Shown one piece after another: positions 2,495 through 61,039 of a stretch of DNA of 64,000 nucleotides. Source of the stretch: Okamejei kenojei (Eukaryota); assembly GCA_035221665.1 (NCBI GenBank), contig CM069155.1, positions 30,628,001-30,692,000 on the forward strand. The letters are read 5' to 3'. Within the stretch, counting starts at the first letter, position 1. Each line of letters opens with the position of its first letter. The translations under genes were made by a program, and so were the position numbers. The notes beneath the pieces are model-generated. The model did not search any database, had not been told where the DNA came from, and saw nothing but the letters and a program-made list of their open reading frames with translations.

Positions 2495-2498
<4 letters not shown>

Positions 2499-20625: not shown

Positions 20626-20627
<2 letters not shown>

Positions 20628-20708
<81 letters not shown>
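20628..20708. repeat. (GA)n microsatellite
   Basis: GA run with a single interruption. Confidence 0.97.
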
Positions 20709-20711
<3 letters not shown>

Positions 20712-36560: not shown

Positions 36561-39500
36561 GTGTCCCGTGATTTACTCCGCTTTATGGGTCTCACTTTCA
36601 TTGGTTATTGAGGAGATTACTCTAAATATAGGTTAATTTCAATGTTATACCTGTTGAGTTTGTAAAGGATACACAAGTTCGATATGAGATGCTGTTTCTC
36701 TCCGGTTTGCGGTTAAGCGGGCCATTAATTTTGGCAATAGAGGAGTCTCCGGACACTAACGTTATGTGGGAGAGTTGGAACATTTTGCTCGTTACATTCG
36801 AAAATGGCCGCTTAAAACATTATCTGAGCCCTGAGCACTAATAGGAAATATGGCGTGTGCCGACGGCCGAATGGACTTAAGTGTGCGGTTCCCCTATAAT
36901 TGTTCATGAATCCACGCAGGAGTTTGAGAGATGCTGTGTACATGAGGTGCCGCATCCACAGACTGAGTTTTAAGCTATTGTGTCTGTTATTGATAGTGGA
37001 AGTGGGGTGGTTTTCCCCCTGGGGCTAAGCGAACCCAGCCCGGGTGTAGTGTGGATTATGCTCTTGGATTTAACGCAGTGTTATATTGCGGCATTCGCCG
37101 CAAGGACTGTTTTATTGTGGAATGGTGTGGTTGAAGACTTACGAGCGATCTTGTAGTTGTGTACACTATTTAGAATTACGGTTATGTTATGCAGCTTTAT
37201 TGCATTTTTGATTACCTTTCATATGATGGGTGGTGACTAAACTATGTTTTTATATATATCCCTGATTTCTACATGTGGGATGCTTTGTATACTGTTCAAT
37301 CTCCACGTCTCCAATAATTTAAATGTTACTTGTATCCCATTTTCTATCTAATTTATTAGGAATATATATATATAGAAGCTGAGCTATTAAATATTTGATA
37401 TATTGGATTGGATTATTTTAGAAAATATATGAATTGTGTATGACGATGAAATGTTTTTGTTTTTATGTGTACTTGCTTCTTATATATAGACGTTAGTTTT
37501 TTAATACATTTATGAAAAAAGAGTACATTGGAAGAATTATTATACTACAAATTGTTCATCAGATTCTCTGGATTTCTTAGAGCCATCGGTGATGCTCTTG
37601 ATGGTAGAATTCGTCTGAGGTAAATGCATGGACCACATAGCAAGGTCACTTGGGGAGTTTATTACAGATCTTCTGCCTTTCGCTAAGGTTTCTAGTCCAA
37701 CAGGCAATTTCCTGGCCCATATTGTTTTCCTTCAGTTCCTTCCAGTCAATCCGCCCAGTTTCAGGTCTGGGCCTACCAACTATAAATCTAGGTAAGGATT
37801 GTTTGTGTTTCGCTATTCCTGAGTGAGACTCAGTATCCTCTGAAATGTAAACTGTTCATAAATTCATTCTGACATGTTTCTGGGATTTTCCTACATTATA
37901 ATAATTCAAGCTTTTGTCGCGGTCTTCAAGGGGGTCTCAAGTCTTTGTGGTGTCTTTACGTGTAGTCTTTGTTCTCCTCTGTTCACATGTACTGCTTAAA
38001 GAAGCTTTTTTTAGCTATCGATTTTGCTTTATGTAGTAGATGGGCTAGTCTCTGCTTCGTTACCTCATCGTTTTCCCCTTCCCCATATTGCTTTTTTGTG
38101 TTTTTCTGTTGTTCTTTAAAATTACACAATACTTTGCTGCCCGCTACATCTTTGCGTACGTTTGACTTCTTACGTTTTAATTTTTATATATGTCCCTGGA
38201 CATCCCTGTTGCCTTGGTCGTCCATTTCTCACCTTGGGAATCTTCTTCCTGCATTGGAGGGGTAAACGTGATTCTAGCATATTTGTATATTTTTTCTCTA
38301 CTAGAGTTTTTTTTTTGTTTTTTGATTTTTTTTAATTTCTTTTTGTGTTGTTATTTTTTTGTTTTTTCTGTAATAGCCTGCTACATTTTGTTTGTTGTCC
38401 ACCTGTCATCATCATTGCTACGACTCGATATAAATTGTTTCCGAGTCATACTGTTGGCCAGCTACCTGGCTCATGGCCCATAGTCCGCCTTTTTCAACGT
38501 CAACATCTGCCCTCCGGATTCCCTTCTACCTCTCCAATTGATAGATGTTAAACCTGACCATGTTGATGGTGCACTGCCTCCTCAGAAGGTTCTTTAGAGT
38601 CAAAATGCTCTTTTTTTTTTGGTTTTTTCGAGTTTATTTGGTTGGGTGTGTGTGAATATATGGTTAATTACTTAACGACACTTAAACCCAGAGATTGCCT
38701 TCTTCACTGGATGTAGGGTCTGGCCAATGTTCGAAGATGTGGTGTGTATGAATCGAAGTCACAAAAGGGCATATCTAACTCAAAGAGTCCGCTTTGCTTG
38801 GTGGTCCGAGGTTTACACGAAGACCTTGTTTTTTATCCCAGGATATCCTGATTGTTGTGAGTATGAAATGCTGTCTTTGATAAGCACTTGAAATACACAG
38901 CATTGTACTTTTGCCATGCTGCCAATTTTTAATGTGTCCTGGGTTTCAACTTGCCTTGGGCCTATGTTCCCATGGCTGATGTTGGTGGGGGCCTGGTAGA
39001 TTAGTCCCATTTTTTTATAGTGGTCTTGTTAACCTGCTGTCATATTCCGTAGTTTCTGAATCCATACTGATGTTGGTCCATAAAACTCTTTGTTTCAGAG
39101 GTTCGCCGCCCCTTGCAAGGAGCATTGAATTTCATTTACTCTCCAAAATGTGGCACACAAACACCCCTTACGGCTCCCGCACTCTCTGTTTTGTACTTCT
39201 TTGTCGATAGTTGAGGTGTATATTATCTCCTTGAATATATTACAGATTCCTAGAGCATGGCCCTCTTTTGCTCAGAACATGTCTCTGTAATAATTCCCAA
39301 ACATTCAGTATTTAATTGCCAGTTTTAACTTGTGACTCAGCTCGTTCCGTGCTTTATCCTTAACCTTTGCGCATTCATACTCACATATTCGTTCCCCCTC
39401 AGCACTGCCTCGTTAATTGGGCCCTGTGATCTTACTTTTCTGTGGTCCTATTGTCTCGGGGTTTTCTATAGTTTCCATTAATTGGAGAATTTCATTGATT

Positions 39501-40879
39501 GTAATTTTTCTGTTGTCCTTCCCCTTAACCCTCCGTACTTTATATTTCTCGCAATTTGTCTATATCCAGTCACCCACCCACTGTTTTGTTCTAACCCTAA
39601 GCATGTGTGAGGCTTTCATTAGGGTCTCTTCATTCTGTCTTGTCTGTAGGTGCAGGAGTGTTCTGTCTCGGTGTCTGTTAGGTCCTGTGGATGTAAATTT
39701 GTATATATTTGGTGTGATGTGTGGGTCAGTCGCAGTGTCATCAGGAGCCGGATGGCAATGTAGTGTGTCGCTCCTTTGTTTTACCACTCTTTGAAGACGG
39801 GGAGGAGACTGAATTTCCAGGACCTGACACTCAGGACTCGCTTCTTACCTGATGCATTATGTCTCAGTAGGGTCAAGCGCATCTCTGGAGCTAAAGGATG
39901 GTGATGTTTCGGGTCTTGCTCTTCTAGATGAAAACTAACTTGCATCTCCCATCTTCTCTCAGTTTGGGAGGTTCGCTACACAAACCCGGATGATTTTTAT
40001 TTACTACTAAGCCTTTACTTGGACCTTTCGACCCCCCCCCTCCCCTCCCAGGAGATTCTGTTTTTGTTTCACCATTTGCAGAGCATTTGGCTAGTTTTTT
40101 TTTTTATTTTCTCTCTCATTTGGGAAAGCTCTACTGTAGCTGTCAATCTCGCAGAACTTACTGCTTCGAAGGGCAAGGTTATGATTTATCTTTTTCACTA
40201 ATGTTGTCGCTCTTTGGATTCGGGCAAGTTAACGTGAAGCCATGAATACGAATTATCAAGTCAGCACAATGCATCCGCTTGCCAGACAGTCGATTGAGGT
40301 CTTCCTCTCATGTGATCTTTAATAACATAAAATACTGGACAGTTCAAGTCAGATCACAATATTTGCAGAGTCAGGACACAAAACAGGACACTGGCTTTGA
40401 CCTTTTTATCAGAACTGAAAGGCAGATTTACGAAATTACAGATCAAAAATAACGGCGAACGGAAATACAAGCAACATATTCGCAGAGATTGGATGAGGAT
40501 GCACTGAATTTTAAATCGATGCGCACAGCAAGTGTAAACTGAAAGCGAGGTTTCCATTTCTTAATCCGCGTCCTACCTTTTCTCCAGCGATTCCGAACTA
40601 CAGATTTCGGCATCCATACTATTTTGCATGTCGGTGGTGAAAGTTGTGTCGGAGACAGTGACCAACAGTCACAGTGGACTGTGATTAGATACAGTTACTA
40701 ATAGATCGGTCAGGTTGTCACAACTATTGCCTAGGATTTTCAATAAGCTACAGCTGGGAGTAAACGACAGGTGCTTGCTCTCCATCGCAACTCTGTGTTT
40801 GGGGGCTGGCTTTGCAAATTTTCAGAAGTGAATATTGTACCTGCAAATATAGAAAATGTAGATAGCGGTTAATTGTCCT

Positions 40880-43800
40880 TATTTTACTTCGGAGTCACGT
40901 GAGTGACTACGTGAAGAGCCCACCTGGCGCTGGCAAACGGCATTACGTCGACGCTGACGGCGGAAGGAGGAGCTGCAGTAAGGAGCAGCTCCTCGCAGCG
41001 GTCGGAACGGACCCGCAGGTAAGTGGGGCAAAGTCGGGACGTTCGTTAGAGTACGCTGGGTGGGTCCAGCAGTAAAAGTAAAGTAAAATAAAAGTCAGAG
41101 TCACGTTAAAGATAATTAAACTATGTGGAACTAATAATGGAGCATATGGAGAAAGTTCTCCAAAAAATTATGAGACTAGGGTCACAGTACCCAGAAGGTT
41201 CCAAAAAAGGCCTGAGGGGCTGTTAATTATTTCTGATATGGATGTGGGTTGTGGGCCTAATTGGGAGTTGGAACTCCGGACCCAGGATTTGGGCCGAATT
41301 GGAAGTCTCATGGGGATGAAATCTCCAATTGATTTAGGGCTGCAGAAGGCAGACCCTGCTGATGGGTGATTTTGCATTGAAAGCACACCACAAAATAAAA
41401 AGAAAGGGCCAATGTGCCTGGGATTAGCTAAAGAATTTTGCTATATATGAAGGAATGGTGTGGCTATGGAAGAAAACCTGCTGCCAACATTAATATATGG
41501 TATCTCACCAACTTCATGATTCTGTGATGATTGAACATCAAACTTTCAGAAGTATAAACGCACAGGAAATTGTGCCTCATTGGAAGTGCCTACGGTTTTA
41601 TCCGTTGATATGGCATCCATGACCCCAAGATATGAGAGCTCAAAGAAGTGAGGTTCATAAATCCTCACAAATTATTCTGCTGCCATTATGGCTTTGGGGG
41701 GGAAATGGATATTAGTTTAAAAGAGGGCCTATTGTTGCAATTCTTTCTATGAAATTATTGTATGAGGAAATGGCTATTCGGCCCATATTTCACCCAAGGT
41801 TGCAAGCCTGTGTCGAGCAAGTGGTGTTCAAGCTCCTGCGTTATCTGTTTGGAGTAAATCTGCCTAAATTATTAAAAATTGGATGAAGAAGCTAAAAATA
41901 TTTAGCTGCATGAAACCTTCGTCTTAGACAAAAAAGGTATTTTTCGCCCAGAAGGGGATTTGATTTTGGAAATAGAGGCAGAAATATGTCAAGGAAATAT
42001 TTATTGTCCTGCACAGCCCAATACTTACCCGTATAGGGGAGAAGGAGACCACCACGCTCAAATGGAGAGGTATTAAAGACTTGTTCTATCCTTAAAGAAA
42101 CTGCGGATAAATCTCCAGTATGGAGGGAGATTACAAAAGTTTTTTATAAAGACTGGCTTACTATTACTTCTGATCGGTTTGTTTTACAAGCATTTTCAGG
42201 AGCCACTATATACATTTAAAGAAGAGGTTAATCCTCCAGTACAGATAAACCTGCCTATGCTTTCGTGTTTACTACAAATTGAAAAGCAGAGATTAATGTG
42301 GAAATTGACAAATTATCTGAAAAGGGTTATTGAAAAATTATGAACACGAGCATCAATTGTGTCTAATATTTTCAAAAGACATAAAAAGATGGTGGTTGCA
42401 GAATTATTCTGGACTTCTTACAGATCTAAATAACAGTGGTAGATTACAAACATTTTTAAAATGGAAACATTTAATACTGCAAGATATTAATATTAGCAGG
42501 TTGTTTATGGCTACGATTGATTTGAAAAACGCCTATTATTCTGTACCAATACATCAGTTTCTGGAGGTACTTAAAAATTTAATTGGCTGGGACAATTATG
42601 GCAGTTTTAAAGCTTTGCCAAATGGATTGAGTTCAGCTCCCAGGCTCTTTACTAAACTGTTGAAAACCAGTTTTTAGCCCAATTAAGAGTACAAAAACAC
42701 ATCGTTATGGCTTATCTCGATGACATTCTAATCAATTTATGGCAATCAAGAGTCAGCTGAGAATTAGTTCAGTACAAAAGCTTTGTTAAAGCTAGGGTTC
42801 TTGATTCATCCAATTAAATCCCAGCTGCAGCCAGCACAATCAATTAACTATTGGGGTTTGAAATTAACTCAGAGACTATGTTAATACTTTACCAACAAAG
42901 ATAAAGTTGATGATTTTTGGTGACCTGTAATAATCTCATTCACAAACTTATCCTTCCATCCGAGAAGTACGAAAACTATTGGTAAAACTAGTAGCAGCGT
43001 TTCCTGCAGTAGAATTTGGTCTTTACATTATCAAAATCTTCAAAGGGACAAAATAAGAGCTCTCAAAGAGAGGGGCAGGCCACATTGATAGGCCTATGCA
43101 ATTAACAAAAGAAGCTTTGTTGGAATTACCATGGTGGGTTAAAAATGTCCCACACTAGCTGCTAAAAACATATTTTTTTTCTGATTAAACAGCCTGAAAT
43201 TGTTATAATAGATGCTTATGCTCTCGGATGAGGTGGGTAACAGATTCCTCCTCCAGTTGTGGAGGTAGATGGAAAGTCCAAGAAGAAACGTTTTCTTCAA
43301 ACTTATGGTATTAACTATTTAAAGTTATTAGGGTGCTTTCTATGGTCTAAAAGCATATTGCTGTTCAAAAAAGGGTCTACATGTATTAATACAGTTTAGA
43401 CAATAAAACGGCTGTGGCATATATTAATCACATCTTGGGGGAGTCAGATCAGTATCATGTGATTGTCTGGTCAATGAAATATGGCAATGGTGTATTGATC
43501 GCCAAATTTGGATTTCAGCAAACTACATTCCAGGTAAAGACACTGTGGTGGCAGATAAAAGATCAAGGATATTTAAAGATAACACAGAAAGCTTAATCCA
43601 GCCAATATTTAAGAATATGTAACTCAATTTGGGTTTACTACCAGAAATTGATTTGTTTGCATCAAGGCTTAATCATCAATTGCCTAAATATGTGTCTTGG
43701 GAACACGACCTCCAGATGCAGTAGCAGTAGATGCTTTTTCATTGAACTGGGGGAATATGTTCTTGTAGGCTTTTTCCCCCCACCTTTTGCTTTGGTTCAG

Positions 43801-45855
43801 CAATGTCTGAAGGAAATAGAACAAGATTCTGCCACAGAATGTTGGTAGTTCCAAATTGGCCAACACAACCTTGGTTCCCAATTAATGATTGGTTGAATAT
43901 GATTAAAGAACCATATATGTCAATTCCTAACTGTAGTGATATTTTGATTAATCCAGTAACCAAAGAAATTTATCCATTATATGCATATATGAATTTATTA
44001 ATCTGCAGGTTTTGACCAACCACTACAGGATTGTCGGCTGGGTTTGTCGATAAACTCACAAAAACAAAACTGAGGGGGATGGAACTGGTTTGTGGGCTTT
44101 GGGTTATAGTCGCATCGGGATGGGGGATGGCTGGGGGGGGGGAGAAACTGTTGCGTGCGTCGAAAGGGGTAAAGTGGGTTGGAGGGAAGGAGTGGCATGT
44201 GTTGGGTCCACAAAAACCATTTGTGTGTCATATATGAGTCCCGGGTTCTTGGGGGTCTCTTTAATATTATGGGCGGGGATGTCGGCTTGTGGCTGGGTGT
44301 GGAAATGGGAAGAATGGGGGTTGTATGTGTCTTGGGTTGCACACCTGCCTGTGGTATATCAAATAGCTTGTCGCGTCGGGGCTTTCGAGTTTATGATGTC
44401 TTTTGTTACTGTGAAATATTGCAAATGTATTGGAGTTCCTATGCTAAATTGCATTTTGAGCAACATTTAAGTTACAGTATGTGAGTGCCATTAACACTGC
44501 ACGCAGTGCCTTATCATCTTATTTAGGACTTATGTCTGACCAGAAATCAATTGGATCACATCCACTAATATCTAGATTCATGAAAGGAATCTTTAACATT
44601 AATCCACCCAAACCTAGATACACAGAGAATTTGGGATGTGAGCATTGTACTTACTTACTTAGACAGTGGACTCCAATTAAAGGATTGTCATCGGAAAGAT
44701 TAACATTCAAATTAATAATGTTAATATCATTGGTTTCAGCTCAAAGAGTGCAAACTTTACAAATGTTGCGTTTAGACTGTATGCATGTGACTACAGATAA
44801 CATTGTGTTCTATGTTTACGATCTGATCAACACAAAGCAGACCAGGAAGAACTGGAGCAAAGGTAATCTTTCAAGCTTATCCTATTGATCCTACTTTATG
44901 TGTGGTTAGACATTTGAACCAATATATAAAAGTTACCAAAACTCTTCGAGGAAATGAAATAACGTTAATGATTACGCATAAAAAAATAAAATAAATAAAT
45001 TTAAAAAAAACACACACTAAAGCTTCAGTTCAAACTATCTCAAAGTGGTTGAAACAGGTGTTACTGTTAGCAGGAGTAGACACTGATGTGTTCAAATCTC
45101 ACTCCACCAGGGCTGCAGCTACATCCGCGGCGAAGGTGCGGGACGTACCGCTCAAGCATATTTTTTAAAAATCGCAGGGTGGAGTAAAGAAGAAAACTTT
45201 TTCAAAGTTCTACTACAATAAACCTGTTCACACTATGACAAGTTTTGGCCACGCGGTGTTGGGATCACTAATAGTCACCTGCTTTGTTTACTATTGATTG
45301 CTTATAATCAGTTATGATAGTCACTTATATCTTTTATTCACTTGTAATGATCCCTCGGATATAAGGAGGGTTATTGTGATGTTCTTTAACCATTAAAAAT
45401 TAATTATGGAAAGAACTAAAATTAGTCTGGTTTCTCATGTATGTATTTACTTAGCCGGACTGTCGTACTGATTAAAATTCTACGACATAAAAAACACAGA
45501 AAGCTTTAAAATCTTCACGTAGTCACTCACGTGACTCCGAAGTAAAATAGTAAGATTAAACGAGAACTTACCAGTTCGAAGTTTGATCGTTATTTTATGA
45601 GGAGTTACGATGAGGGATTACGTGCCCTCCACTCCCACCCTCATAAAATAAATGATCATCTGGTAGTTCTAAGTCTATTATGAGCCTTACTATGTTACTT
45701 CGGCTATTTGGTGTTCTGTGTTTTTCATGCTGCTGCTTTGAAGTATGCCGTTTGCCAGCGCCAGGCGGGCTCTTCACGTAATCCCTCATGGTAACTCCTC
45801 ATAAAATAACGATCAAACTTCGAACTGGTAAGTTCTCGTTTAATCTTACTATTTT
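40880..45855 (+). mobile_element. DIRS1-like tyrosine-recombinase retrotransposon, full-length structure, ORFs disrupted as assembled
   Basis: Motifs for RT (ATIDLKNAYYSVPIH; LPNGLSSAPRLFTK; AYLDDILI), RNase H (DNKTAVAYINH), a MT-like domain (IDLFASRLNHQLPKYVSW) and YR (INTARSALS; HPLISRFMKG; HSTRAAATS). Inverted termini at 40909-40943 and 45745-45780. The ICR (45512-45624) is complementary to both outer ends. Confidence 0.93.
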
Positions 45856-46248: not shown

Positions 46249-46563
46249 TCATGGGGAGAATGGGGAAAAGTCATCACCTACAGCGTGGCTAGCAGTGTTG
46301 CACGGGAGATAGACACATAAAAGCTGGAGTAACTGAGCGGGACATACAGCATCTCTGGAGAGAAGGAATGTGTGACGTTTCGCGTCGAGACCCTTCTGCA
46401 GTTGCACCGGAGTTGCTGGAGCCGCGACCCAGCGGCGCTCTTGAATGGAGCCAGAGGTTATCGCTGACCACGGAAATTCGCCAGGCGCAGCGATTAGCGT
46501 TCTAAGTGGAAGCTTTAAATTTGACTTGAACATGACACTACTTTGAATCAAAGTATCATGTTC
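46249..46563 (-). CDS. Receptor A, putative last cytoplasmic exon (no ITIM)
   Basis: Acceptor ccgtcatttttag|GAA. EHDTLIQSSVMFKSNLKLPLRTLIAAPGEFPW… crosses the deletion junction into repeat-derived sequence and stops at 46249. Confidence 0.45.
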   Translation of the reverse strand, partial: EHDTLIQSSVMFKSNLKLPLRTLIAAPGEFPWSAITSGSIQERRWVAAPATPVQLQKGLDAKRHTFLLSRDAVCPAQLLQLLCVYLPCNTASHAVGDDFSPFSP

Positions 46564-46704: not shown

Positions 46705-46754
46705 CTCCAGTACTGTTCCAGGAGTCGAATCATTGTGCACCATTAACCGTTTTT
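46705..46754 (-). CDS. Receptor A, cytoplasmic exon 1
   Basis: ttctag|AAAAACGG…GAG|gtagtg, (E)KRLMVHNDSTPGTVLE. Differs from the paralog by an in-frame 6-bp indel. Confidence 0.65.
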
Positions 46755-47670
46755 CTAGAATTACCAAATAACCAAGCGTTATTACATGTGATATGTTAAC
46801 ATTTTTGTCAAGACTGCAAATATAATCACAAGGAACTACAGGTGCTGCTTTACACAAAATGACTCAAACTGCTGGACTAATTCAGTGGGTTAAGCAGCAT
46901 CTCTGGCGAGCACTATGAACATAGAATTATCCAATGTAACAAACTTACCCCCCCCCCCTTCTTTTCCCACACCTCCACTGTGCCCCACTTGGTTCCACGC
47001 ATATACCCCCCCCCCCCCCCCCAGTAGTACATTCCTTCCTCTGGCTTCACAATTCGCAACTCTTCAATCTGTTCTTCTCACACTTTCTATTCTAATCCCC
47101 GGCCTTTGTTCCAACTAAATATCAAACCGTGCCTCCACCTGCAAGCTTTGTCCCGCCTCCCCTCTCTTCCTGCTTCCCCCTCTCCTACAGTCAATCTGAA
47201 GAAGGGTCCCAACCCGAAACATCACCTATCTATGTTTTCCAGAGATGCTGCTTGATCCACTGCATCACGTTGTGTCTTTTTAGCAAAACATCTGATTATT
47301 TTATATATATTGCAAATATTGCAGAGGAGCGGCCGACTTGATTATTGGAGTGTAGGTAGTAAGTCCTGCGATATGAATACATACATGAATTATTATAACA
47401 GTCTGTTTTTGTATTAGTAAAATGGTGATACTGATAGAGGAAACTGAGAACTTATTTTTGTTTTTGCTACTTTGAAATCTTTGTAACAGTTACACACTTT
47501 CACGCATTTTAGGTGCCATATTTAAGCACACGATGGGCCAAATCGGGTACTCATTGCTGTGCACTTCGATGATTCATTTTCACTGTTTGAAATTGATCGC
47601 CAACAATGTCAATTTTACCTTAATAATTTGTTAACGACTCTCACATTGGCGGTGAAAGCTTAATACTCAC

Positions 47671-47772
47671 CTGTTATTTTCCAACAGTTTACCGCTATGA
47701 AAATAATGACAAATACCAGGAGGGAAATCATCCGATAAAGCCACGAATGTAGTTCTTTCCGGTAAACAGGAC
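47671..47772 (-). CDS. Receptor A, transmembrane exon (Arg at TM start)
   Basis: tttcaaag|GT…ACAG|gtgagt, 102 nt, phase 1/1. GPVYRKELHSWLYRMISLLVFVIIFIAVNCWKIT. Arg codon at 47732-47734. Confidence 0.85.
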
Positions 47773-49293
47773 CTTTGAAATAAATGTGCACATTTCATGG
47801 TTAATTTATATATATATATAAAATTATAATTGGCAAGTTTTTCTGAAAAGTAAAGGAGTAATATATACCATTGCGCTCTCGAGATGATCCACTACGCCTG
47901 CATCGTTTTGAGATCCTTTACAATATTATATATGTAATCAAACTTCAAATGCCGAGGTTTAGTCTTTTCTCGTTATATTCCGCCGAATTTCGCTTTTCGG
48001 CGGAAGTGCTTTCCATTGAAATGACTAAAGTTTATATCTTTTTTAAAGACAGCGGAAAGATGAGTTTCCTGAAGTAGAAAACTGATCAACTGATATCGCA
48101 AAACACGTTTGGCCGTCAGTGTTTAAAACTAGGAGTTCCCGTCGATGTAAAATTGGCTGCCGAAGGCGCGGAGTATTCACGTGGAACTGGAAGTTGACAA
48201 TATTTTACAATGCACTAGTTATGGTATTCAGGTGAAATGTGAATCAAAACACGTATAATTTAGCAAGATGCTTCCTGACCTGCTGAGCATTTCCAACATA
48301 TTTCAGATTTTACGCATCTGCAATATTTTGTACAAAATTATCATAGGGCAAGATCACCCGATTTGTGTCATTACTAACTTTTGCTGTTGCATTACCTTTC
48401 TTGAATAAACTGTGCAGTGACTTTCTGAAAATCAAAAATCGACTGCAACAATACGAGTAAAATCAAAATGGTTCAACTATACTATATTTTATTTTCATAG
48501 AGAATTGGAGATTCTCATCCACGATAAAGATCTCGGGTCGGGATCCATGTCAATCCAAGTTACAGACATATAGATGTGGTCTGATCTGCATTCACCAACA
48601 TCGTTAACTGTACAGAAAACAGGGCAATACAGGACTTGAACAGGCGCCTCGGCCTACAACGTATGTGCCGAACATGACACCAACTCTTATTTGCCTGCAC
48701 ATGATCCATATCCCTCCTTTCCATGCTTATCCATGTGCCTATCCAAATGCTATTATCTTATCTACCTCCGGCACAATTCCCGTCGTTCCAGGCACTCACT
48801 GCCCTCTGTAACTTTTTTTCACCGCTCACATCACCTTTAAACTTTGCCCTTTCACAAAACTACCAGAGCAGCTTTAATATTTCTGAATTCTAACACTGAT
48901 CAAAAAGATGATGCCAACTCTAATTCAATATAACTACCATAGAGACGTTGCTCACCCGTTTGTATTTATTTTGCAAATGCTGTTTCGTGTTTAAAGTTCG
49001 CCAGTACATTTCGTCCTCGACGAGACCCCGTTTTTTTGGCCCAGGTCAATCCTACCTACACCTTCCCACACTCGGGTACATTACAACGCCAAATACTGGC
49101 AATCATTAATGGTCAGGTGCAACAATCCAACTGACACCCTATTACACAAGACCCCCCCCCCCACTCAAATCCCGAGTCGCTACTGTTGCTCAGTGGCATC
49201 TCTGTCGAGTTTGTTTTGCTAGGATCAGGAACTGAAGGCTGTTGTTCAATTGATTTAATTTGAATTTAAATATGAATAATTGCATAATCCTAC

Positions 49294-49708
49294 CTGTAAC
49301 CATTAATCTGCTTCCGTTGCCGTTGAAACCCAGAGGGGATGGTGGATTCAACGCTATCAATTCACAGTAATATGTGCCGCTGTCTTCTTGCTGAAGATTA
49401 TTTATCGATAATTGGCTTCTGTATAAGTGTTGGTCCCTAGTAAATTCTAGCCCGAAGGAACGGAGTACTTTGGATTTGTTCATGTAAAATACGTAGGTCC
49501 GATTACTTGCATTGCTTGATTCACGAAACCAATTGATTATAAAGTCGTGGATTTTATCAATTAAAACGATACAGTTCAGCTCCGCTGTTCCTCCTTCAGA
49601 CACTGTGAGATGACTAGGAGTCTGGTGAACCAGCAAGTCAGTAACATGCAGTGACCAGGTAGTGCAGAAAGTCCACATATAAAAATATATAAATGTAACG
49701 ATGCTCAT
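49294..49708 (-). CDS. Receptor A, leader + VJ-type IgSF V exon (NKp30/CD28/PD-1-like, family unresolved)
   Basis: Signal-like N-terminus, then V-set hallmarks: VHQTP, EGGTAELNC, NWFR, LSINNLQQEDSGTYYC and a J-like G strand GNGSRLMVT. Phase-1 donor G|gtagga. Confidence 0.9.
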
Positions 49709-50349
49709 GTTTTCGAGACGCTAATGCGGGCAGGCACAAGGAACTGAAGATAATAGTTTACAACAAAAGACACAAAGTGCTGGAGTAACTCAGTGGGTCA
49801 AGCAACATCTCTGGAGGACAAGAGTTTGAAGCAACCGGTTACTGTTCCCCTTTCACAGTTCGGCCGGATGTGAGGTGTGCAGAACTCGGCGCTCTGCAGA
49901 GCCATGCCGCTGTTTATGGGAGCGTGTGGGTTCTGAAAATAGCTGTTGCCCAATAGAAGCAGAAACGGTAGAACCAAGTGTAATCAGAACGCCTCGCCCT
50001 CTGCGCCGAAAACCAACACCTTAACTCGAGCATTGCTGCGCTTGACATTTAAGGTGTGATTTTCTTCAAACCAGCCTACGCTGAAAATAAGAGGAGAAAA
50101 ACTAATAAGTGAAATGCGCAAAATGAATTCAGAAAAAGAAGGGCTACCAGTGATCAGCGAACAAATCTTAATTTGATCAAATCCAATTCAGTCGCAGTGT
50201 CGGAGGGAACTGCGGGTGCCGGTTTAAGCAGAAGATAGACAGAAATTGCTGGAGTAACTCAGCGGGACAGAGATGCTGCCTGTCCCGCTAAGTTACTCCA
50301 GCATTTTGTGCCTCTCTGAAGTAGTGTCCTTCTGATCCCGGTGTCCCGA

Positions 50350-51440
50350 ACATTTCCAACATATTTCAGATTTTCAACATCTGCAATATTTTGTACAAAA
50401 TTATCATAGGGCAAGATCACCCGATCTGTGCCATTACTAACTTTTGCGGTTGCATTACTTTTATTGAATAAACTGTGCAAACTTTCTGAAAATCAACCAT
50501 CGACTGCAACAATTCCAGTAAAATCAAAATGGTTCAACAATACTATTTTATTTTCATAGAGAATTGGAGATTCTCATCCACGATAAAGATCTCGTGTCGG
50601 GAACCATGTCAATCCAAGTTACAGATATATAGATGTGATCTGATCTGCATTCACCAACATCGTTAACTTTATAGAAAACAGTACAATACAGGACCTGAAC
50701 AGGCCCCTCGGCCTATGTGCCGAACATGACACCAAGGCTAACTCTTATTTACATATCCAATCCATTTCCCTCCTTTCCATGGTTATCCATGTGCCTATCC
50801 AAACATCATTTAAATGCCATTATCGTATCTGTCTCCGTCACCATTCCCGTCGTTCCAGGCACTCCCTGCCCTCGGTAACATTTTTTTTAACCGCTCTCAT
50901 CGCCTTTAAACTTTGCCCTTTCACTAAACTAACAGAGCAGCTTTGATATTTCTGAATTCTCACACTGATCAAAAAGATGATGCCAACTGGAATTCAATAT
51001 AACTATAAACGTTGCTCACCCGTTTGTATATCTACCGATCAGGTAACAATATTTAGGTTACAAAATGATGCGTCTAACCATACTCAGGCGCACAATTACA
51101 TTAACGCCAACTACCAAATTAAGTCGACGTGAAGCAGAATATTTTGAGATTATCTCCATTGATCTTCTAAACCAGTTGCAAGTCGAACATTTCCACATGT
51201 TGTTTCCATTTTTTTCTTTCCATCTCCTTCGAAGACTACATTTCTTTTTGTGGGGACATCTAATTTGCAAATGCTGCTTAGTGTTTAATGTTCACCAGTA
51301 CATTTCTCCCTCGAGGAGACCCCGTACTTTTTGGCCCAGGACAATCCTACCTACACCTTCCCACACTCGGGTAGATCGCAACGCGAATTACTGGCACTCA
51401 ATAATGATCGGGAGCAACAATCCAACTGAAACCCTATTAG
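50350..51440 (-). repeat. Orphan third copy of the receptor V-TM intron segment
   Basis: Direct repeat of 48288-49145 with an extra ~230 bp at ~51030-51260. No V exon attached; it ends at a CR1. Confidence 0.85.
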
Positions 51441-51461
51441 TCAAGCCCACCGCTTGTCCAG

Positions 51462-51725
51462 TCCTTTTATAATTTTATATGTTTCTATAAGATCCCCCCT
51501 CGTCCCTCTAAACTCCAGTGAATACAAGCCTAGTCTTTTCAATCTTTCCTCATATGACAGTCCCGTCATCGCAGGGATCAATCTCGTGAACCTACGTGAA
51601 CAATCTCGTGAACTGCCTCAATCACAAGGATGTCCTTCCTCAAATTAGGAGACCAAAACTGTACACAAACTCCAGATGTGGTCTCACCAGAGCCCTATAC
51701 AACTGCAGAAGAACCTCTTTACTCC
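51462..51725 (-). mobile_element. CR1 fragment (minus strand)
   Basis: Reverse complement of the CR1 ORF2 C-terminal region (LVRPHL…GLYSLEFRG). Confidence 0.8.
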
Positions 51726-53317
51726 TGGTTAGGTAAATTGAATGGATTAAAGGCCAATAAATCCCCAGGGCCAGATAGGCTGCATCCCAGAGTACTTAAG
51801 GTAGCCCCAGAAATAGTGGATGCATTAGTGATAATTTAGCAAAACTCTTTAGATTCTGGAGTAGTTCCTGAGGATTGGAGGGTAGCTAATGTAACCCCAC
51901 TTTTTAAAAAGGGAGGGAGAGAGAAAATGACCAGTTAGTCTAACATCGGTAGTGGGGAAACTGCTAGAGTGAGTTATTACAGATGGGATAGCAGCACATT
52001 TGGAAAGTGGTGAAATCATTGAACAAAGTCAGCATGGATTTACGAAAGGTAAATCAAGTCTGACAAATCTTATAGAATTGTTCAAGGATGTAACTAGTAG
52101 AGTGGATAAGGGAGAACCAGTGGATGTGTTATATCTGGACTTTCAGAAGGCTTTCAACAAGGTCCCACATAAGAGATTAGTATACAAACTTAAAGTACAC
52201 GGTATTTGGGGGTTCAGTATTGATGTGGATAGAGAACTGGCTGGCAGACAGGAAGCAAAGAGTAGGAGTAAACGGGTCCTTTTCAGAATGGCAGGCAGTG
52301 ACTAGTGGGGTGCCGCAAGGCTCAGTGCTGGGACCCCAGCTATTTACAATATATATTAATGATTTGGACGAGGGAATTGAATGTATCATCTCCAAGTTTG
52401 CGGATGACGTGAAGCTGGGGGGCAGTGTTAGCTGTGAGGAGGATGCTAGGAGGCTGCAAGGTAACTTGGATAGGCTGGGTGAGTGGGCAAATGAATGGCA
52501 GATGCAGTATAATGTGGGTAAATGTGAGGTTATCCACTTTGGTGGCAAAAACAGAAAAGTAGACTATTATCTGAATGGTGGCCGATTAGGAAAAGGGGAA
52601 ATGCAACGAGACCTGGGTGTCATGGTACACCAGTCATTGAAAGTAGGCATGCAGGTGCAGCAGGCAGTGAAGAAAGCGAATGGTATGTTAGCATTCATAG
52701 CGAAATGATTTGAGTATAGGAGCAGGGAGGTTCTACTGCAGTTGTACAGGGACTTGGTGAGGCCACACCTGGAGTATTGCGTACAGTTTTGGTCTCCAAA
52801 TCTGAGGAAGGACATTCTTGCCATAGAGGGAGTACAGAGAAGGTTCACCAGACTGATTCCTGGGATGGCAGGACTTTCATATGAAGAAAGACTGGATAGA
52901 CTCGGCTTGTACTCGCTGGAATTTAGGAGATTGAGGGGGGATCTTATACAGATTTACAAAATTCTTAAGGGGTTGGACAGGCTAGATGCAGGAAGATTGT
53001 TCCCGATGTTGGGGAAGTCCAGAACAAGGGGTCACAGTTTAAGGATAAGGGGGAAATCTTTTAGGACCGGGATGAGAAATACATTTTTCACACAGAGAGT
53101 GGCGAGTCTCTGGAATTCTCTGCCACAGAAGGTAGTTGAGGCCAGTTCATTGGCTATATTTAAGAGGGAGATGTGGCCCTTGTGGCTAGAGGGAGAGAAG
53201 GCAGGTACGGGATACTGAGTTGGATGATCAGCCATGATCATATTCAATGTCGGTGCAGGCTCGAAGGGCCGAATGGCCTACGCCTCCATCTAGTTTCTAT
53301 GTTTCTATGTTTCTATG
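51726..53317 (+). mobile_element. CR1 LINE 3' half
   Basis: KSPGPD, SQHGF, YLDFQKAF, VPQGSVLGP, FADD, PHLEYCVQFWSP. Contains stops and frameshifts and ends in a (TTTCTATG)n tail. Confidence 0.95.
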
Positions 53318-54029
53318 GTTCACAGTTCACACTTGCTAGAGTTGCTCCTAATTCCTTCTTCCAAATCATTAATATATATGGTAAACAGTTGCAACACCGG
53401 GATCAGAAGGACACTACTTCAGAGAGGCACAAAATGCTGGAGTAACTCAGCGGGACAGGCAGCATCTCTGTCCCGCTGAGTTACTCCAGCAGTTTCTGTC
53501 TATCTTCTGCTTAAACCAGCACCTGCAGTTCCCTCCGACACTGCGACTGAATTGGATTTGATCAAATTAAGATTTGTTCGCTGATCACTGGTAGCCCTTC
53601 TTTTTCTGAATTCATTTTGCGCATTTCACTTATTAGTTGTTCTACTCTTATTTTCAGCGTAGGCTGGTTTGAAGAAAATCACACCTTAAATGTCAAGCGC
53701 AGCAATGCTCGAGTTAAGGTGTTGGTTTTCGGCGCAGAGGGCGAGGCGTTCTGATTACACTTGGTTCTACCGTTTCTGCTTCTATTGGGCAACAGCTATT
53801 TTCAGAACCCACACGCTCCCATAAACAGCGGCATGGCTCTGCAGAGCGCCGAGTTCTGCACACCTCACATCCGGCCGAACTGTGAAAGGGGAGCAGTAAC
53901 CGGTTGCTTCAAACTCTTGTCCTCCAGAGATGTTGCTTGACCCACTGAGTTACTCCAGCACTTTGTGTCTTTTGTTGTAAACTATTATCTTCAGTTCCTT
54001 GTGTCTGCCCGCATTAGCGTCTCGAAAAC

Positions 54030-54444
54030 ATGAGCATCGTTACATTTATATATTTTTATATGTGGACTTTCTGCACTACCTGGTCACTGCATGTTACTGA
54101 CTTGCTGGTTCACCAGACTCCTAGTCATCTCACAGTGTCTGAAGGAGGAACAGCGGAGCTGAACTGTATCGTTTTAATTGATAAAATCCACGACTTTATA
54201 ATGAATTGGTTTCGTGAATCAAGCAATGCAAGTAATCGGACCTACGTAATTTACATGAACAAATCCAAAGTACTCCGTTCCTTCGGGCTAGAATTTACTA
54301 GGGACCAACACTTATACAGAAGCCAATTATCGATAAATAATCTTCAGCAAGAAGACAGCGGCACATATTACTGTGAATTGATAGCGTTGAATCCACCATC
54401 CCCTCTGGGTTTCGACGGCAACGGAAGCAGATTAATGGTTACAG
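54030..54444 (+). CDS. Receptor B, leader + VJ-type IgSF V exon
   Basis: Same V-set domain as receptor A with 3 substitutions. aaacATG context, donor ACAG|gtagga, four N-glycosylation sequons (NAS, NRT, NKS, NGS). Confidence 0.9.
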
Positions 54445-55788
54445 GTAGGATTATGCAATTATTCATATTTAAATTCAAATTAAATCAATTGAACAACAGC
54501 CTTCAGTTCCTGATCCTAGCAAAACAAACTCGACAGAGATGCCACTGAGCAACAGTAGCGACTCGGGATTTGAGTGGAGGGGGGGGGGGGGGTCTTGTGT
54601 AATAGGGTGTCAGTTGGATTGTTGCACCTGACCATTAATGAGTGCCAGTATTTGGCGTTGTAATGTACCCGAGTGTGGGAAGGTGTAGGTAGGATTGACC
54701 TGGGCCAAAAAACGGGGTCTCGTCGAGGACGAAATGTACTGGCGAACTTTAAACACGAAACATCATTTGCAAAATAAATACAAACGGGTGAGCAACGTCT
54801 CTATGGTAGTTATATTGAATTAGAGTTGGCATCATCTTTTTGATCATTGTTAGAATTCAGAAATATTAAAGCTGCTCTGGTAGTTTTGTGAAAGGGCAAA
54901 GTTTAAAGGTGATGTGAGCGGTGAAAAAAAGTTACAGAGGGCAGTGAGTGCCTGGAACGACGGGAATTGTGCCGGAGGTAGATAAGATAATAGCATTTGG
55001 ATAGGCACATGGATAAGCATGGAAAGGAGGGATATGGATTATGTGCAGGCAAATAAGAGTTGGTGTCATGTTCGGCACATACGTTGTAGGCCGAGGCGCC
55101 TGTTCAAGTCCTGTATTGTCCTGTTTTCTGTACAGTTAACGATGTTGGTGAATGCAGATCAGACCACATCTATATGTCTGTAACTTGGATTGACATGGTT
55201 CCCGACCCGAGATCTTTATCGTGGATGAGAATCTCCAATTCTCTATGAAAATAAAATAGCATTGTTGAACCATTTTGATTTTACTGGAATTGTTGCAGTC
55301 GATGGTTGATTTTCAGAAAGTTTGCACAGTTTATTCAATAAAAGTAATGCAACCGCAAAAGTTAGTAATGGCACAGATCGGGTGATCTTGCCCTATGATA
55401 ATTTTGTACAAAATATTGCAGATGTTGAAAATCTGAAATATGTTGGAAATGTTCAGCTGGTCAGGAAGTAACTTTGGCTAAACTATAAATGTTTCGATTC
55501 ACAATTCACCTGAATTCCATATCTGGCGCCTTGTAAAATATTGTCAACTTCCAGTTCCACGTGAATACTCCGCGCCTTCGGCAGCCAATTTTACATCGAT
55601 GGGAACTAGTTTAAACACTGACGGCCAAATGTGTTTTGGGATATCAGTTGATCATTCTACTTCAGGAAACTCATCTTTCCGCTGTCTTTAAAAAATATAT
55701 AAACTTTAGTCATTTCCATGGAAAGCACTTCCGCCGAGAAGCAAAATTCGGCCGAATATAACGAGAAAAGACTAAACCTCGGCATTTT

Positions 55789-55823
55789 AGTCTGAAGAAG
55801 GGTCTCGACCCGAAACGTCGCCT
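55789..55823 (+). ncRNA. Minimal type I hammerhead ribozyme motif
   Basis: CTGAAGA, stem II GGGTC/GACCC, GAAA, palindromic ACGT, GTC cleavage triplet. Confidence 0.55.
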
Positions 55824-56399
55824 ATCTCCTTCGCTCCTTAGATGCTGCTGCACCCGCTGAGTTTCTCCAGCTTTTTGTGTACCCTCGATTCTCCAGCATC
55901 TGCAGTTCCTTCTTTAACACTTTGTCTACTCCACTGCGATATATCCTCAAGGTATGCCAACTTTGAAGAAGTTCTCCTCCTCCCTACGGAGACAGTTTCA
56001 CAACCTCCTCTCTAACTGCTCCCCCTCTGTGATACCCCCTTCCCTCCAACTCTACGACCACATCCTCACCCAGACTCGATACCACAGCCACATCTGCTTC
56101 CTCGGGGCTTGCCTGCGCCTCCATCTCATACCCCGTGGATTCCAGCTCCAATTCCCTGCGTCCCAGTTCGGACCCCAGCCGGACTATCGGTACCGACTGG
56201 CTATCTCCCGCCACACTGTACAATTCTCCAACCGGGCACTAAGATCCACCCTGGTTGCAATGCGCCGACACCAGCAGGACCTCGCATTGACTCTCCCGAA
56301 ACTTCGGGCCTCACTCACCCAGACCTGCAACGGACCCCAACTACACTACATCCTCCGGAAGATAAAAAAATAAAATAAATTAAAAAAAAAAAAAAAAAC

Positions 56400-56434
56400 A
56401 GTCTGAAGAAGGGTCTCGACCCGAAACGTCGCCT
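56400..56434 (+). ncRNA. Minimal type I hammerhead ribozyme motif (second copy)
   Basis: Identical core CTGAAGAAGGGTCTCGACCCGAAACGTC. Confidence 0.55.
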
Positions 56435-56683
56435 ATCTCCTTCGCTCCTTAGATGCTTCTGCACCCGCTGAGTTTCTCCAGCTTTTTGTGTACCCTCGGC
56501 ATTTTAAGTTTGATTACATGTATAATATTGTAAAGGATCTCAAAACGATGCAGGCGTAGTGGGTCATCTCTCCGCGAGCGCACAATGATACATATTACTC
56601 CCTTGATTTTCATTAAAACGTGCCAATTATAGTTTCCTATCAATATTAACTTCAACATTGATATTTGCACATTTCTTGCAAAG

Positions 56684-56785
56684 GTCCTGTTTACTGCAAA
56701 GAACAACATTCGTGGCTTTATCCGCTGATTTGCCTCCTGGTATTTGTCACTATTTCCATAGCAGTAAGCTGTTGGAAAGTAACAC
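56684..56785 (+). CDS. Receptor B, transmembrane exon (uncharged TM, stalk Cys)
   Basis: ttcttgcaaag|GT…ACAC|gtgagt, 102 nt, phase 1/1. GPVYCKEQHSWLYPLICLLVFVTISIAVSCWKVT. Confidence 0.85.
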
Positions 56786-57797: not shown

Positions 57798-57841
57798 AAA
57801 AACGGTTAATGGTGCACAGTGATCCTGCAACAGTACTGGAG
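57798..57841 (+). CDS. Receptor B, cytoplasmic exon 1
   Basis: gtgtttctag|AA…GAG|gtagtg, (Q)KRLMVHSDPATVLE, phase 1/0. Confidence 0.65.
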
Positions 57842-58463: not shown

Positions 58464-58856
58464 GATATTTCAGGACCTGGTATATATACGAATACGTCTT
58501 CTACAACACCGGCGGAAACCCGTCAGATTGCAGATTCGCAGGTCGTTTATTCTGATCTTGTGATAGCAAAGGACACTAATACTTCTACAGAGCAGGTACG
58601 CTGTAAAAACAAAACCAAAAAAGTGCATTTCGAGCTACATGACAATGTATTCGGACAGACATCCAACTACACAGGCTTTACTGGAAAACATACAATTAAA
58701 GATAATTGTCCTAAGGGAAGTCCAAGTCCAAGTCAATGGCACCATTCAAGAGAGCAGCTGCCTCGCGGCTCCAGCAACCCCGGTGCAACTGCAGAAGGGT
58801 CTCGCCGCGAAACGTCACCTATTCCTTCTCTCCAGAGATGTTGCCCGTCCCGCTGA
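58464..58856 (+). CDS. Receptor B, last cytoplasmic exon with ITIM
   Basis: Acceptor ctctcttgtttcccaaag|GAT (phase 0), then 130 open codons DISGPGIYTNTSS…QVVYSDLVIAK…CCPSR*. ITIM VVYSDL at 58542-58559. Confidence 0.75.
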   Translation, partial: DISGPGIYTNTSSTTPAETRQIADSQVVYSDLVIAKDTNTSTEQVRCKNKTKKVHFELHDNVFGQTSNYTGFTGKHTIKDNCPKGSPSPSQWHHSREQLPRGSSNPGATAEGSRRETSPIPSLQRCCPSR

Positions 58857-61039
58857 GTTACTCCAGGTTTTTGTGTCTATCTCCTGTGCAACACTACTGT
58901 CCACGCTGTAGGTGATGACTTTTCCCCATTCTCCCCATGAAGTCACGGGATTGCCCCAGGTGCTCCCCCCCTCCCCCCCCCCCCAAATCCCAAGGATTAA
59001 CTGGCCGCTGTAGATTCCCCCCAGTTTGCAGGTGAGTGGTAGAACCTGGGAGGGAGGGAGGGATGATGATTGGAATGTGGGAGAATATGCCACAGAGAAA
59101 TAGGCGATGGAATGGGATTTCTCCGTGAGCCCCCATCTTTTCGATGAACTGAAAAATGTCGTTGTGAAATATGATATATAATGATTGAGAAAAGGGCAGG
59201 CCAATTTTAAAGCGGACTGACCTAAAGTTAACATTGTTTGAAAACATGCTTACCGCAACATTACAGGTTAAAGTCACGTAAATTTACTGCAAATTGTAAT
59301 GACTAATATAATAAATGTTCGCTAAATACAGTATACGGCAAAATCTACGTTTTCTATATTTGCAGGTGCAATATTCACTTCTGAAAATTTGCAAAGCCAG
59401 CCCCCAAACACAGAGTTGCGATGGAGAGCAAGTACCTGTCATTTACTCCCAGCTGCAGCTTAAATGAAAAATCTAGGCTAGTTGTGACAACCTGCATCCA
59501 GTAACTGTAAATCACAGTCACTGTGACTGTTGGTCACTGTCTCCGACACAACTTTCACCACCGAAGCAAAATAGTATGGATGCCGAAATCCGCAGTTAGA
59601 AATCGCTGATTAGGTAGGACATGCGGGTTAAGAAATGGAACCTCGCTGTCAGTTACCTTTGCTGTGCGCCGTCATTTTATTCAGTGCATCCTCAGCCAAT
59701 CTCTGCGAATATGTTGCTGTTTCCCGTCGCCGTTATTTTGATCTGTAATTCTTAAATCTGCCTTGATTTAAGTCCTGATAAAAGATCAAACGATTCAAAT
59801 GAAATTGTGTCTCATTCTGCAAATATTGTGATTGACTTGAACATGTCCAGTATTTTCTGTTATTTTTTAATAAATCGGTAACGAAGCTGACACTGCTATG
59901 GCAAACCACTGATCACAGTTTGCACGACCAGTTCTCAGCGACATGACTGGCGCTGGAACAAACATCTGAGGACTTCTATCGACTGTGGCCGCGCTTCTGC
60001 ACGGAGGCATTGCTGTCTTGTAATTGACCCCATGGCTTCACGTTAACTTGGCCCGAATAACAGAGCAACAACATTAGTGTAAATTAAACATCACCTTGCC
60101 CTTCGGAGAGTAAGCTCTGAGCTGACGCTAAAGTTGAGCTCCCAACTGACAGATAATCTATTTTAAAAAAATACACCTGCGGATGCTGCAAATCTGAAAC
60201 ACAAACAGAATCTCCTGCCGAGGGGAAAAAAACAAAAGGTCAAGTAAGGTCTGTAGAAAGAAAAATCTTCCGCGTTTGCGATCCTTCGCCAGAACTGGGG
60301 AAGAGAGTGATGCAAGTTAGTTTTCACTAGAAGAGCAGCCGGGGGAATGGGGAGTAGGAGGGTCCAGACCCGAAACATCACCCATCCTTTATCTCCAGAG
60401 ATGCTGCTTGACCCGCTTAATGCAGCAGGAGGACAGCCAGTCCTTCTGAAGGCTGGTCTGGAACTCCAAAGATCATATAGCGATAGGATCCTCCGCTATA
60501 AGATCTTTGGTCGACCCCCCGCCTTAAATGGTAAAACGAAAGGGCGCGTACCAGTGCCATCCTCTCCTGATGACTGACCCACACATCCACCAACGTTACA
60601 GTTTTAGCCTCAGCAGGACCAACAACCCGAGACAGAAATGCGCCGGCACCTACTGAGACAGATGAAGCCCAACAAGCCGCGACTCCTCCTTCGCCGTGAA
60701 ACTGCTGCAGGTTCACCGCCAGTTTGATCACTATTCGCGTTTCCACCACTCCTAGCTTTTCAGACGCTGATGCCCTCCGCTTGCATTCACATTAACACCA
60801 CACTCTCACCCGGGCACGCCTGCAGAAAGGAACATTCAAGGAGTAATTTAAGTGTTGATGCATAGTCAGCCTCTATGTTGTTTGCGTGCAGACTGCAGCG
60901 TCTGGGTGCATCATCCACCGTTATTACAGGCCACAAAACTGCCCACACAGTCTACCGCGCAACGCCTACGAATGGTTTCTCGCTGGTAGACAAAAATGAT
61001 GGTACCACCCTTAGTCAGGCAGATGGTACCACCTATCAC

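Follow-up and report, generated by a model that had tools for sequence, protein, structure and literature searches.

The window, a stretch of 64,000 nucleotides from the skate Okamejei kenojei, contains two related receptor genes arranged head to head on inverted arms. The following gene features were modelled:

54030..54444, + strand: right gene, exon with leader and V-set domain
56684..56785, + strand: right gene, stalk/TM exon (AG/GT sites, tblastn of orthologues)
57798..57841, + strand: right gene, cytoplasmic exon 1
58464..58595, + strand: right gene, cytoplasmic exon 2 with ITIM VVYSDL
59366..59467, + strand: right gene, final exon with ITIMs VQYSLL and VIYSQL
49294..49708, − strand: left gene, leader and V exon, within the insert described below
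47671..47772, − strand: left gene, stalk/TM exon, whose TM bears an Arg at its outer edge
46705..46754, − strand: left gene, cytoplasmic exon 1, extended in frame by 6 nt
46451..46452: point where ~650 bp were deleted together with the second cytoplasmic exon of the left gene (phase 0 on either side, reading frame preserved)
40863..45851: 5-kb retroelement in the last intron of the left gene, which we take to be DIRS-like (terminal repeats; RT-, RNase H- and recombinase-like frame matches to a neighbouring element)
40748..40840, − strand: left gene, final exon with ITIMs VQYSLL and VVYSQL

The right gene model yields a predicted protein of 264 aa with 3 ITIMs, while the open frame of the left gene predicts 219 aa and 2 ITIMs. 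If transcribed, the left gene would encode a 219-aa inhibitory receptor in which the ligand specificity of the neighbour is combined with the left TM and a shortened tail, but it may equally be decaying. Read-through past cytoplasmic exon 1 would give a putative tail-less form of either copy.

Judged by sequence, both genes appear to belong to an uncharacterised V-TM-ITIM receptor of cartilaginous fish, possibly the counterpart of CD28HL3. This family of ITIM receptors, which spans sharks, rays and chimaeras, adjoins a light-chain cluster. Two orthologues carry LOC identifiers, for which a literature search found no paper. A fold search with the V model (pLDDT 62.5) returned a V-set fold (Z 13.5, rmsd 2.1, 105 aligned) with tied top rows. 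Naming the family by PDB sequence and fold searches was abandoned, as these gave a generic V-set only, in which PD-1, TCR and CD8 rows tied. An atlas search with the sawfish homologue retrieved a fish cluster together with PD-1 clusters at 0.96-0.97, which we treat as a lead only. In a V tree of 29 rows, to which bony-fish CD28HL3 did not contribute, the skate pair (99/100) and a white-shark pair (97/75) were recovered; deep forks were unsupported and PD-1 was misplaced on a long branch. The PD-1 tail motifs (I/V)(D/E)Y(A/G)(E/V)L(D/E)F and (T/V)EYATI given in the accessible text of PMC12151841 are absent from both tails. Like CD28HL3 as presented in the accessible text of PMC11599192, the genes here combine a single V domain, a TM and a cytoplasmic tail with at least two ITIM-type motifs, and they share with bichir and sterlet CD28HL3 the G-strand GNG at equal spacing from the second Cys. 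Unlike in the CD28HL3 motif YxCxxxxx[I,A,V,L]P of the same source, the residue before the CDR3 Pro is Asn here and N, D, S or T in relatives. For the CD28HL3 block markers (prkab1, tmem233, pla2g1b), Pfam matches to their families, putative orthologues at most, lie on the contig that carries the two genes, but 1.2-1.9 Mb off (AMPKBI at 1.17 Mb, CD225 at 1.21 Mb and a PLA2 cluster at 1.8-1.9 Mb, with DUF4698 at a distance of 27 Mb). None of the CD28HL3 accessions in the accessible text of PMC11599192 was among the nameable database matches listed. According to that text, Quiniou et al. 2024 did not find CD28HL3 in cartilaginous fish.

Alignment of the two arms reproduced much of what the initial annotation had read by eye. 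The V exons differ by 3 substitutions in 415 nt, all of them non-synonymous (49324, N/D129; 49489, F/I74; 49535, I/M58), the TM exons by 12 in 102 nt, and the upstream DNA of the V exon by 8 in 636 bp. This upstream DNA presumably acts as the promoter; it also contains two SINE pieces. The reported near-identity of the inner intron was likewise found (6 substitutions in 808 sites and 2 indels), but over 809 bp instead of ~750 bp, as the tract begins at 48485. Uniform identity along the arms would have spoken against the annotation, yet 17/1859 sites differ inside the tract (48485-50344) and 228/2582 outside (Fisher P=2e-36). Sharp edges had also been claimed. Indeed, identity steps abruptly at 48484/48485, but the upstream edge is a novel joint where homology stops and no conversion boundary. 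Nor does the tract cover promoter and V exon only, as a further 196 bp of right-arm intron are copied at 50348-50543. They form part of a third intron copy in the spacer (50348-51451), which had been overlooked and with which the locus resolves as follows:

53394..55454, + strand: donor segment in the intact right gene, both ends continuing into native flanks
48485..50543, − strand: insert of 2059 bp, copied from right-arm 53394-55454 (donor 2061 bp) in circularly permuted order
48485..50344, − strand: near-identical tract (inner intron, leader and V exon, upstream DNA), corresponding to right 55258 to 53394 (17 substitutions in 1859 sites)
50345..50347: non-homologous joint in which 3 inserted bases link the two far ends of the donor (alignment; read contigs across it)
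50348..50543, − strand: second part of the insert, corresponding to right 55454 to 55259 (three-way alignment)
48485..48535, 50544..50594 and 55208..55258: 51-bp core with the same letters in three copies, holding both switch points
50544..51451, − strand: original intron of the left gene, displaced, stopping 137 bp short of the expected place of the V exon
51452..53320: LINE in the spacer, presumably of CR1 type (RVT_1), 5' part inverted, sitting where V exon and upstream DNA of the left gene are missing

The permuted donor aligns with the insert from end to end (2037 matches, 18 substitutions, 10 gap columns), and apart from the 3 bases the joint shows neither gap nor overlap. In the 196 columns of 50348-50543, the left copy is the odd one out 15 times, this piece agreeing with the right copy, while this piece is odd 0 times and the right copy once. 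Across 608 columns of the displaced intron beyond the core, it is the displaced copy that is odd 64 times, the left 4 and the right 2 times. Thus, the spacer copy equals the right arm before the core and the left copy equals it after the core (P=3e-13). Right-type sequence comes close to the joint, with a right-type letter at 50350, 2 bases away. When the insert is removed, the left intron is 7.6-8.2% from the right one on both sides (16/196 and 53/653), as elsewhere in the arms. After the displaced intron (50544-51451) no V or upstream remnant was found; a search of the spacer for the left V gave only matches of 13-18 nt at E=0.08. The left gene carries a permuted order, coincident switch points and a 3-base joint, its original V is missing, and ITIMs are present in both tails. 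The front ends of the two genes are 99% identical because a ~2-kb piece of the right gene sits, permuted, inside the left one.

We consider it probable that the left gene acquired a circularly permuted 2.06-kb copy of upstream DNA, leader and V exon, and intron of its neighbour at the homologous 51-bp site, likely in one non-reciprocal repair event that re-headed a V-less gene. Gene-conversion-like homogenisation, as initially proposed, therefore holds insofar as upstream DNA and V exon were recently copied, non-reciprocally, between inverted paralogues; it fails as replacement conversion, the product being a 2.06-kb permuted insertion with three intron copies. The event may have started when a double-strand break cut the left intron. 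Each broken end would have invaded the inverted paralogue ~7 kb away; copying would have run inward for 1.86 kb from one end and outward for 0.2 kb from the other, before the extended ends were end-joined rather than annealed. Alternatively, the right gene could have released a 2.06-kb circle that then integrated through a single crossover. Two-ended break repair and a free circle would give the same product, and the sequence cannot tell the two apart; we lean slightly towards break repair. The left V was probably lost before the insertion, a presumption resting only on the identity of the CR1-type LINE to its nearest copies within 464 kb, which is at most 92.2%.

The insertion would postdate the split from a species ~4% diverged (organism B). 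In contigs of that organism the match ends at 48965, and several contigs hold a 226-bp segment missing from both the left and right copies here, which points to a copy later than the split. A 252-nt contig of its run X7 joins left-type outer letters in phase with a spacer-type letter at 50595, as expected for a pre-insertion allele, albeit at one site only. Absence of the joint from X7 and X9, which have no cover at 50311-50346, is uninformative, because the right arm's own upstream end is uncovered as well.

An older history would begin with tandem duplication within the left arm; later, two separate conversions from the right would have replaced V and upstream DNA in one case and 196 bp of the second copy in the other. 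Organism B does contain three intron types, as would likewise be expected from an old layout with three copies, and the white-shark paralogues are alike in V only (1/117 vs 9/51). Inverted arms 3 kb apart are, moreover, a plausible substrate for conversion. However, both tracts would need to stop within one and the same 51-bp interval (P=0.024 for two independent switches in one common marker interval) and both would have to reach the joint, one of them within 2 bases. The phased X7 contig of organism B also speaks against this history, which we regard as unlikely.

We assign a similarly low probability to the idea that the two genes form an opposing pair of the SIGLEC5/14 kind with a shared head kept by selection, which would be compatible with an origin by insertion. 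The left-only Arg at the outer TM edge keeps a paired-receptor idea alive on one point: it is found in 0/10 aligned TM-bearing relatives, and an edge Arg in the TM resembles FcR-gamma-coupled receptors. Further, 9/10 changed TM codons are non-synonymous, two sharks have long/short paralogue pairs, and the genes are adjacent with a near-identical ligand-binding domain, as paired receptors are. A partner without ITIMs was not found, as the right copy has three and the left copy two. The SIGLEC5/14 model put forward in the initial annotation fails because ITIMs are present in both copies; both are predicted to be inhibitory, and an activating/inhibitory pair is therefore unlikely. Siglec-14 couples to DAP12 in place of an ITIM, according to the accessible text of PMC4042635. 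Selection was likewise rejected as unsupported. Random changes in the V exon are non-synonymous in 78% of cases, so that three out of three have a probability of 0.48, and the V exon does not differ from the non-coding part of the tract (3/415 vs 14/1444, P=0.78). TM divergence shows no excess over the flanking introns (P=0.20), and by our estimate the 11/12 non-synonymous changes fit neutrality. The tract edges are fixed by the insertion and not by exon borders. Finally, one V copy in run X1 is interrupted by a stop at codon 75 that is phased with a left-type letter; the re-headed gene may therefore be null there.

Discordance between V and tail trees, a further expectation of that annotation, is weakly seen in two lamniform sharks. 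In protein models of the white and basking shark paralogues, 1 V and 3 stalk/TM sites group by species, while 2 stalk/TM and 3 cytoplasmic exon 1 sites group by paralogue. The skate lineage has no paired orthologues, and at this locus we found no evidence for opposite signalling or repeated conversion in that lineage.

Slightly less probable again is a 2.06-kb tandem duplication in the right gene, whose middle, together with the junction, passed to the left gene through a double exchange at the 51-bp core, the tandem allele being lost later. This route should end in the same product, and tandem duplications with such joints are known (accessible text of PMC8654963), but it requires an extra unseen intermediate, and searches of the genome assembly, which give lower bounds, found just 2 V and 2 TM copies and no additional ones. 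That the near-identity reflects assembly collapse or a mis-join is very improbable: a gap lies at 35392-35891 beside indel-rich sequence, but the joint is crossed by short-read contigs in 2/2 runs of organism A from two samples and studies (X1, 50311-50377, 0 differences, with 30 letters right of the inserted bases, below the bar of 31; X5, 50311-50394, 1 difference), in each run a single contig spans V with 3 differences, a second, diverged contig being absent at 49482-49535, and the arms differ by 17 substitutions and 2 indels, unlike indel noise.

The TM region was less clear in the reads. Among the contigs listed for 4 runs, none had the left-type TM letters at 47706-47759; contigs drop bubbles. 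In X1, X6 and X7, right-type TM letters are joined to left-type intron in what is apparently one contig, by equal depth and length, reflecting either graph mosaicism or an inversion haplotype. A haplotype inversion at 47889-47944 was considered; contigs lose phase in that stretch. RNA runs X15-X20 contained just 0.07-0.16 of the sequence words.

In its boldest form, which we hold to be unlikely, the permuted insertion would have revived a decapitated gene as an expressed chimera, in which the neighbour's promoter and V precede the left gene's Arg-bearing TM and shorter ITIM tail; the receptors would represent the missing cartilaginous-fish CD28HL3, and V-restricted homogenisation would recur in lamniform sharks. 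If so, paired receptors could arise in a single step that mimics gene conversion. Judged by pairwise identity or GENECONV, the locus would be scored as conversion, and it is the third intron copy that reveals a head-transplant insertion with the same signal, all breakpoints of which are preserved and datable. It is a single-locus event, and the function of the re-headed gene is predicted only. The locus nevertheless offers a clear natural permuted duplication aimed by paralogue homology, of which the human survey, in the accessible text of PMC7188851, found none. It also offers an undescribed ITIM receptor family as a testable candidate for the CD28-family member reported absent from sharks, rays and chimaeras. 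A search of the freely accessible literature listed nothing on this gene or on homology-targeted permuted insertions re-heading a paralogue.

Near-identical 5' region and ligand-binding domain with diverged TM and tail in adjacent genes are shared with SIGLEC5/SIGLEC14 and with merohomogenisation, as far as the accessible texts of PMC4042635 and PMC3210942 describe them, whereas here we find an insertion, and ITIMs in both copies. Permuted order is the signature of circle-type (eccDNA) duplication published by Takahashi and Innan 2020 (PMC7188851), whose accessible text cites cattle colour-sidedness as a case of circular permutation. The order efghij-abcd, an opening point without gap or overlap and a novel joint (50344/50348) between the donor's far ends agree with it. 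That text reports neither evidence for local homology where the copies inserted nor a clearly adaptive example. Here, by contrast, the copy opens at the homologous 51-bp site in a paralogue 7 kb off and brings in a first exon that is in frame. When extended ends are end-joined without annealing, duplications of ~1 kb with templated joints arise (Kamp et al. 2021; accessible text of PMC8654963). Aborted SDSA with polymerase-theta end joining resembles our locus in ~0.1-10 kb of copied DNA and a short inserted or microhomologous joint; in those worms the sister serves as template and a tandem duplication results, whereas our locus would have used an inverted paralogue as template, yielding a gene chimera.

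The inverted arms represent two head-to-head receptor gene copies, named left and right gene. The features are as follows (window coordinates; the window spans G000:C25:30628001-30692000, G000 being the source genome and C25 the contig):

Right gene: five exons, predicted 264 aa, ITIMs VVYSDL, VQYSLL and VIYSQL
Left gene: four exons, predicted 219 aa, ITIMs VQYSLL and VVYSQL
48485-50543, insert in left gene: right-arm 55258 to 53394, three inserted bases, right-arm 55454 to 55259
11556-14632 and 29870-33472: germline-joined VJ and C light-chain clusters (array G000:C25:30447000-30662000)

All difference counts of the initial annotation were reproduced: the arms differ at 3 of 415 nt in the leader/V exon (V) and at 12 of 102 in the stalk/TM exon (TM). 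Upstream DNA differs at 8/636 and the inner intron at 6/808 positions, and overall 17 of 1859 sites differ within the near-identical tract (48485-50344) versus 228 of 2582 beyond (P=2e-36). V divergence matches that of the tract's non-coding sequence (P=0.78), TM divergence matches its introns (P=0.20), and three of three non-synonymous differences in V equal chance expectation (P=0.48). The right intron contains a 717-bp insertion (55790-56506), the ends of which are two 99%-identical SINE pieces with a 12-bp target-site duplication.

Self-comparison revealed a partial third intron copy at 50348-51451 (spacer copy), overlooked previously. In a three-way alignment, this copy equals the right arm over the first 196 columns (left arm deviating alone at 15 sites, spacer copy at none, right arm at one), while thereafter the spacer copy is the odd one at 64 of 608 columns, the left arm at 4 and the right arm at 2. 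The left arm switches in the reverse sense (P=3e-13), and both switches lie inside one 51-bp core that is identical in all three copies. Therefore, 48485-50543 is a circular permutation of right 53394-55454, with 2037 matching sites and 18 substitutions. Upon removal of the insert, both flanks are ~8% diverged from the right arm. The two ends of the right-gene segment continue into native flanks, which identifies the right gene as the donor. The displaced left intron ends 137 bp before the V position at an element which we take to be CR1-type; a search of the spacer past this intron detected no remnant of the left gene's own V or upstream region.

Alternatively, two independent conversions could have made the left and spacer copies similar to the right arm, but both ends would have to fall in one marker interval (P=0.024) and one tract would have to extend to 2 bases from the joint (50345-50347, the three extra bases). 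A single event accounts for all features of the insert. The joint is spanned in both short-read runs of organism A, whose samples and studies differ: by an X5 contig that extends 34 letters to the left and 47 to the right with 1 difference, and by an X1 contig with 34 letters on the left, 30 on the right beyond the inserted bases, and 0 differences. Runs X7 and X9 from other organisms lack cover at the joint and are uninformative. V appears in X1 and X5 as one contig each with 3 differences at depths 47 and 42, and pieces listed beyond the tract at 26-36 (X1) and 15-30 (X5), depth being no measure of copy number. One V copy in X1 (sample S1) carries a stop at codon 75 (49482-49489) and, in phase with it, the letter of the left copy at position 49489.

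Contigs of organism B, a related species (X7) diverged by ~3-4% (15/437; 24 in 602), depart from the window at 48965, and three to four carry a 226-bp segment missing from both near-identical copies, so copying postdates the split from organism B. In organism B, the left-type outer intron is linked in phase to the spacer-type letter at position 50595, at this one site the expectation for a pre-insertion allele. However, its three outer-intron types would fit an old three-copy layout as well. In the window, the region of the second cytoplasmic exon recurs in a third, indel-rich copy (36118-36592, + strand; 75.6%, 34 gaps in 483) next to an N gap (35392-35891); given the three intron types of organism B, it may mark a third paralogue concealed by the gap, or be noise. 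Among the contigs listed for four runs, none had left-type TM. As bubbles are merged in the contigs, phase cannot be trusted over any shared stretch that reaches 31 bases. At 47661-48079, an apparent single contig per run (X1, X6, X7) links left-type intron to right-type TM letters, representing either an inversion haplotype or a contig mosaic.

The shared tract is real, young and mechanistically legible, and a single event is its likely origin. A break at the core might have been followed by copying of the inverted paralogue by both broken ends and closure by end joining; alternatively, a circle might have entered the left gene by one crossover. We somewhat favour break repair, because the template is adjacent and the short insertion at the joint repeats bases just upstream. 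The left V was probably lost before insertion, as the CR1 is at most 92.2% like its nearest copy in 464 kb, compared with 0.9% difference for the insert.

The left gene has lost the second cytoplasmic exon by in-frame deletion, harbours a 5-kb retroelement in its last intron and has an Arg where its TM begins on the outer side, a residue found neither in the right copy nor in aligned relatives. White and basking shark each possess one long and one short paralogue (P0158, P0011, P0166, P0012); the basking-shark long model omits the tail exon that the left gene has lost. White-shark paralogues differ at 1/117 residues in V versus 9/51 from stalk to first tail exon (P=1e-4), and the short forms of both species at 6/117 in V and 0/13 in the first tail exon. 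Hence the anticipated discordance, V grouping by species and the first tail exon by paralogue, is seen in another lineage, in a comparison that draws on protein models and a small number of sites; it may also stem from purifying selection or from errors of annotation.

The nearest V relatives are uncharacterised proteins from stingray, sawfish, sharks and one chimaera, and V clusters with two rays in the tree, which makes a ray or skate the likely source. At least two V and at least two TM copies are present in the genome, lower-bound searches finding no further ones. Other single V exons (29-33% identity; L003-L005) are located at G000:C42:14386902, C21:39649047 and C30:14354080; for two of them the match extends into the leader region. 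Horn shark and stingray have another single-V family of uncharacterised proteins (P0093, P0107), with several ITIM-like tail motifs in P0093. The receptor genes adjoin the edge of the light-chain array, for which a 464-kb stretch gave 11 matches to joined VJ and 11 to C, and whose unit is a 13-kb direct repeat (1-13064 versus 18225-31411, 96.4% identity). The light-chain copy at ~33084-33472 beside the gap has many indels (19 gaps in 397), which may reflect low-quality consensus.

Neither predicted tail has the tail motifs of PD-1. A SIR2 gene, the human neighbour of which is presumably PLA2G1B, lies 0.21 Mb from the receptor genes, and family-level Pfam matches to prkab1, tmem233 and pla2g1b lie at 1.17, 1.21 and 1.8-1.9 Mb on the same contig (C25). 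According to PMC11599192, these three genes neighbour CD28HL3, an ITIM-bearing receptor not found there in cartilaginous fish. Domain structure and tail are compatible with the CD28 family as defined in that text. The receptor is a tentative CD28HL3 candidate and no more than that, since its CDR3 differs from the CD28HL3 motif and the tree does not include CD28HL3.

The pattern described initially was right, while the readings as conversion and as SIGLEC5/14-like paired receptors mostly did not hold. Siglec-14 couples via DAP12 in place of an ITIM (PMC4042635), whereas left and right genes both carry predicted ITIMs, so that pairing of this type fails. End joining of extended ends has been demonstrated in worms (PMC8654963), and the permuted order of the insert is shared with circle-mediated duplication, of which it is a described signature (PMC7188851).
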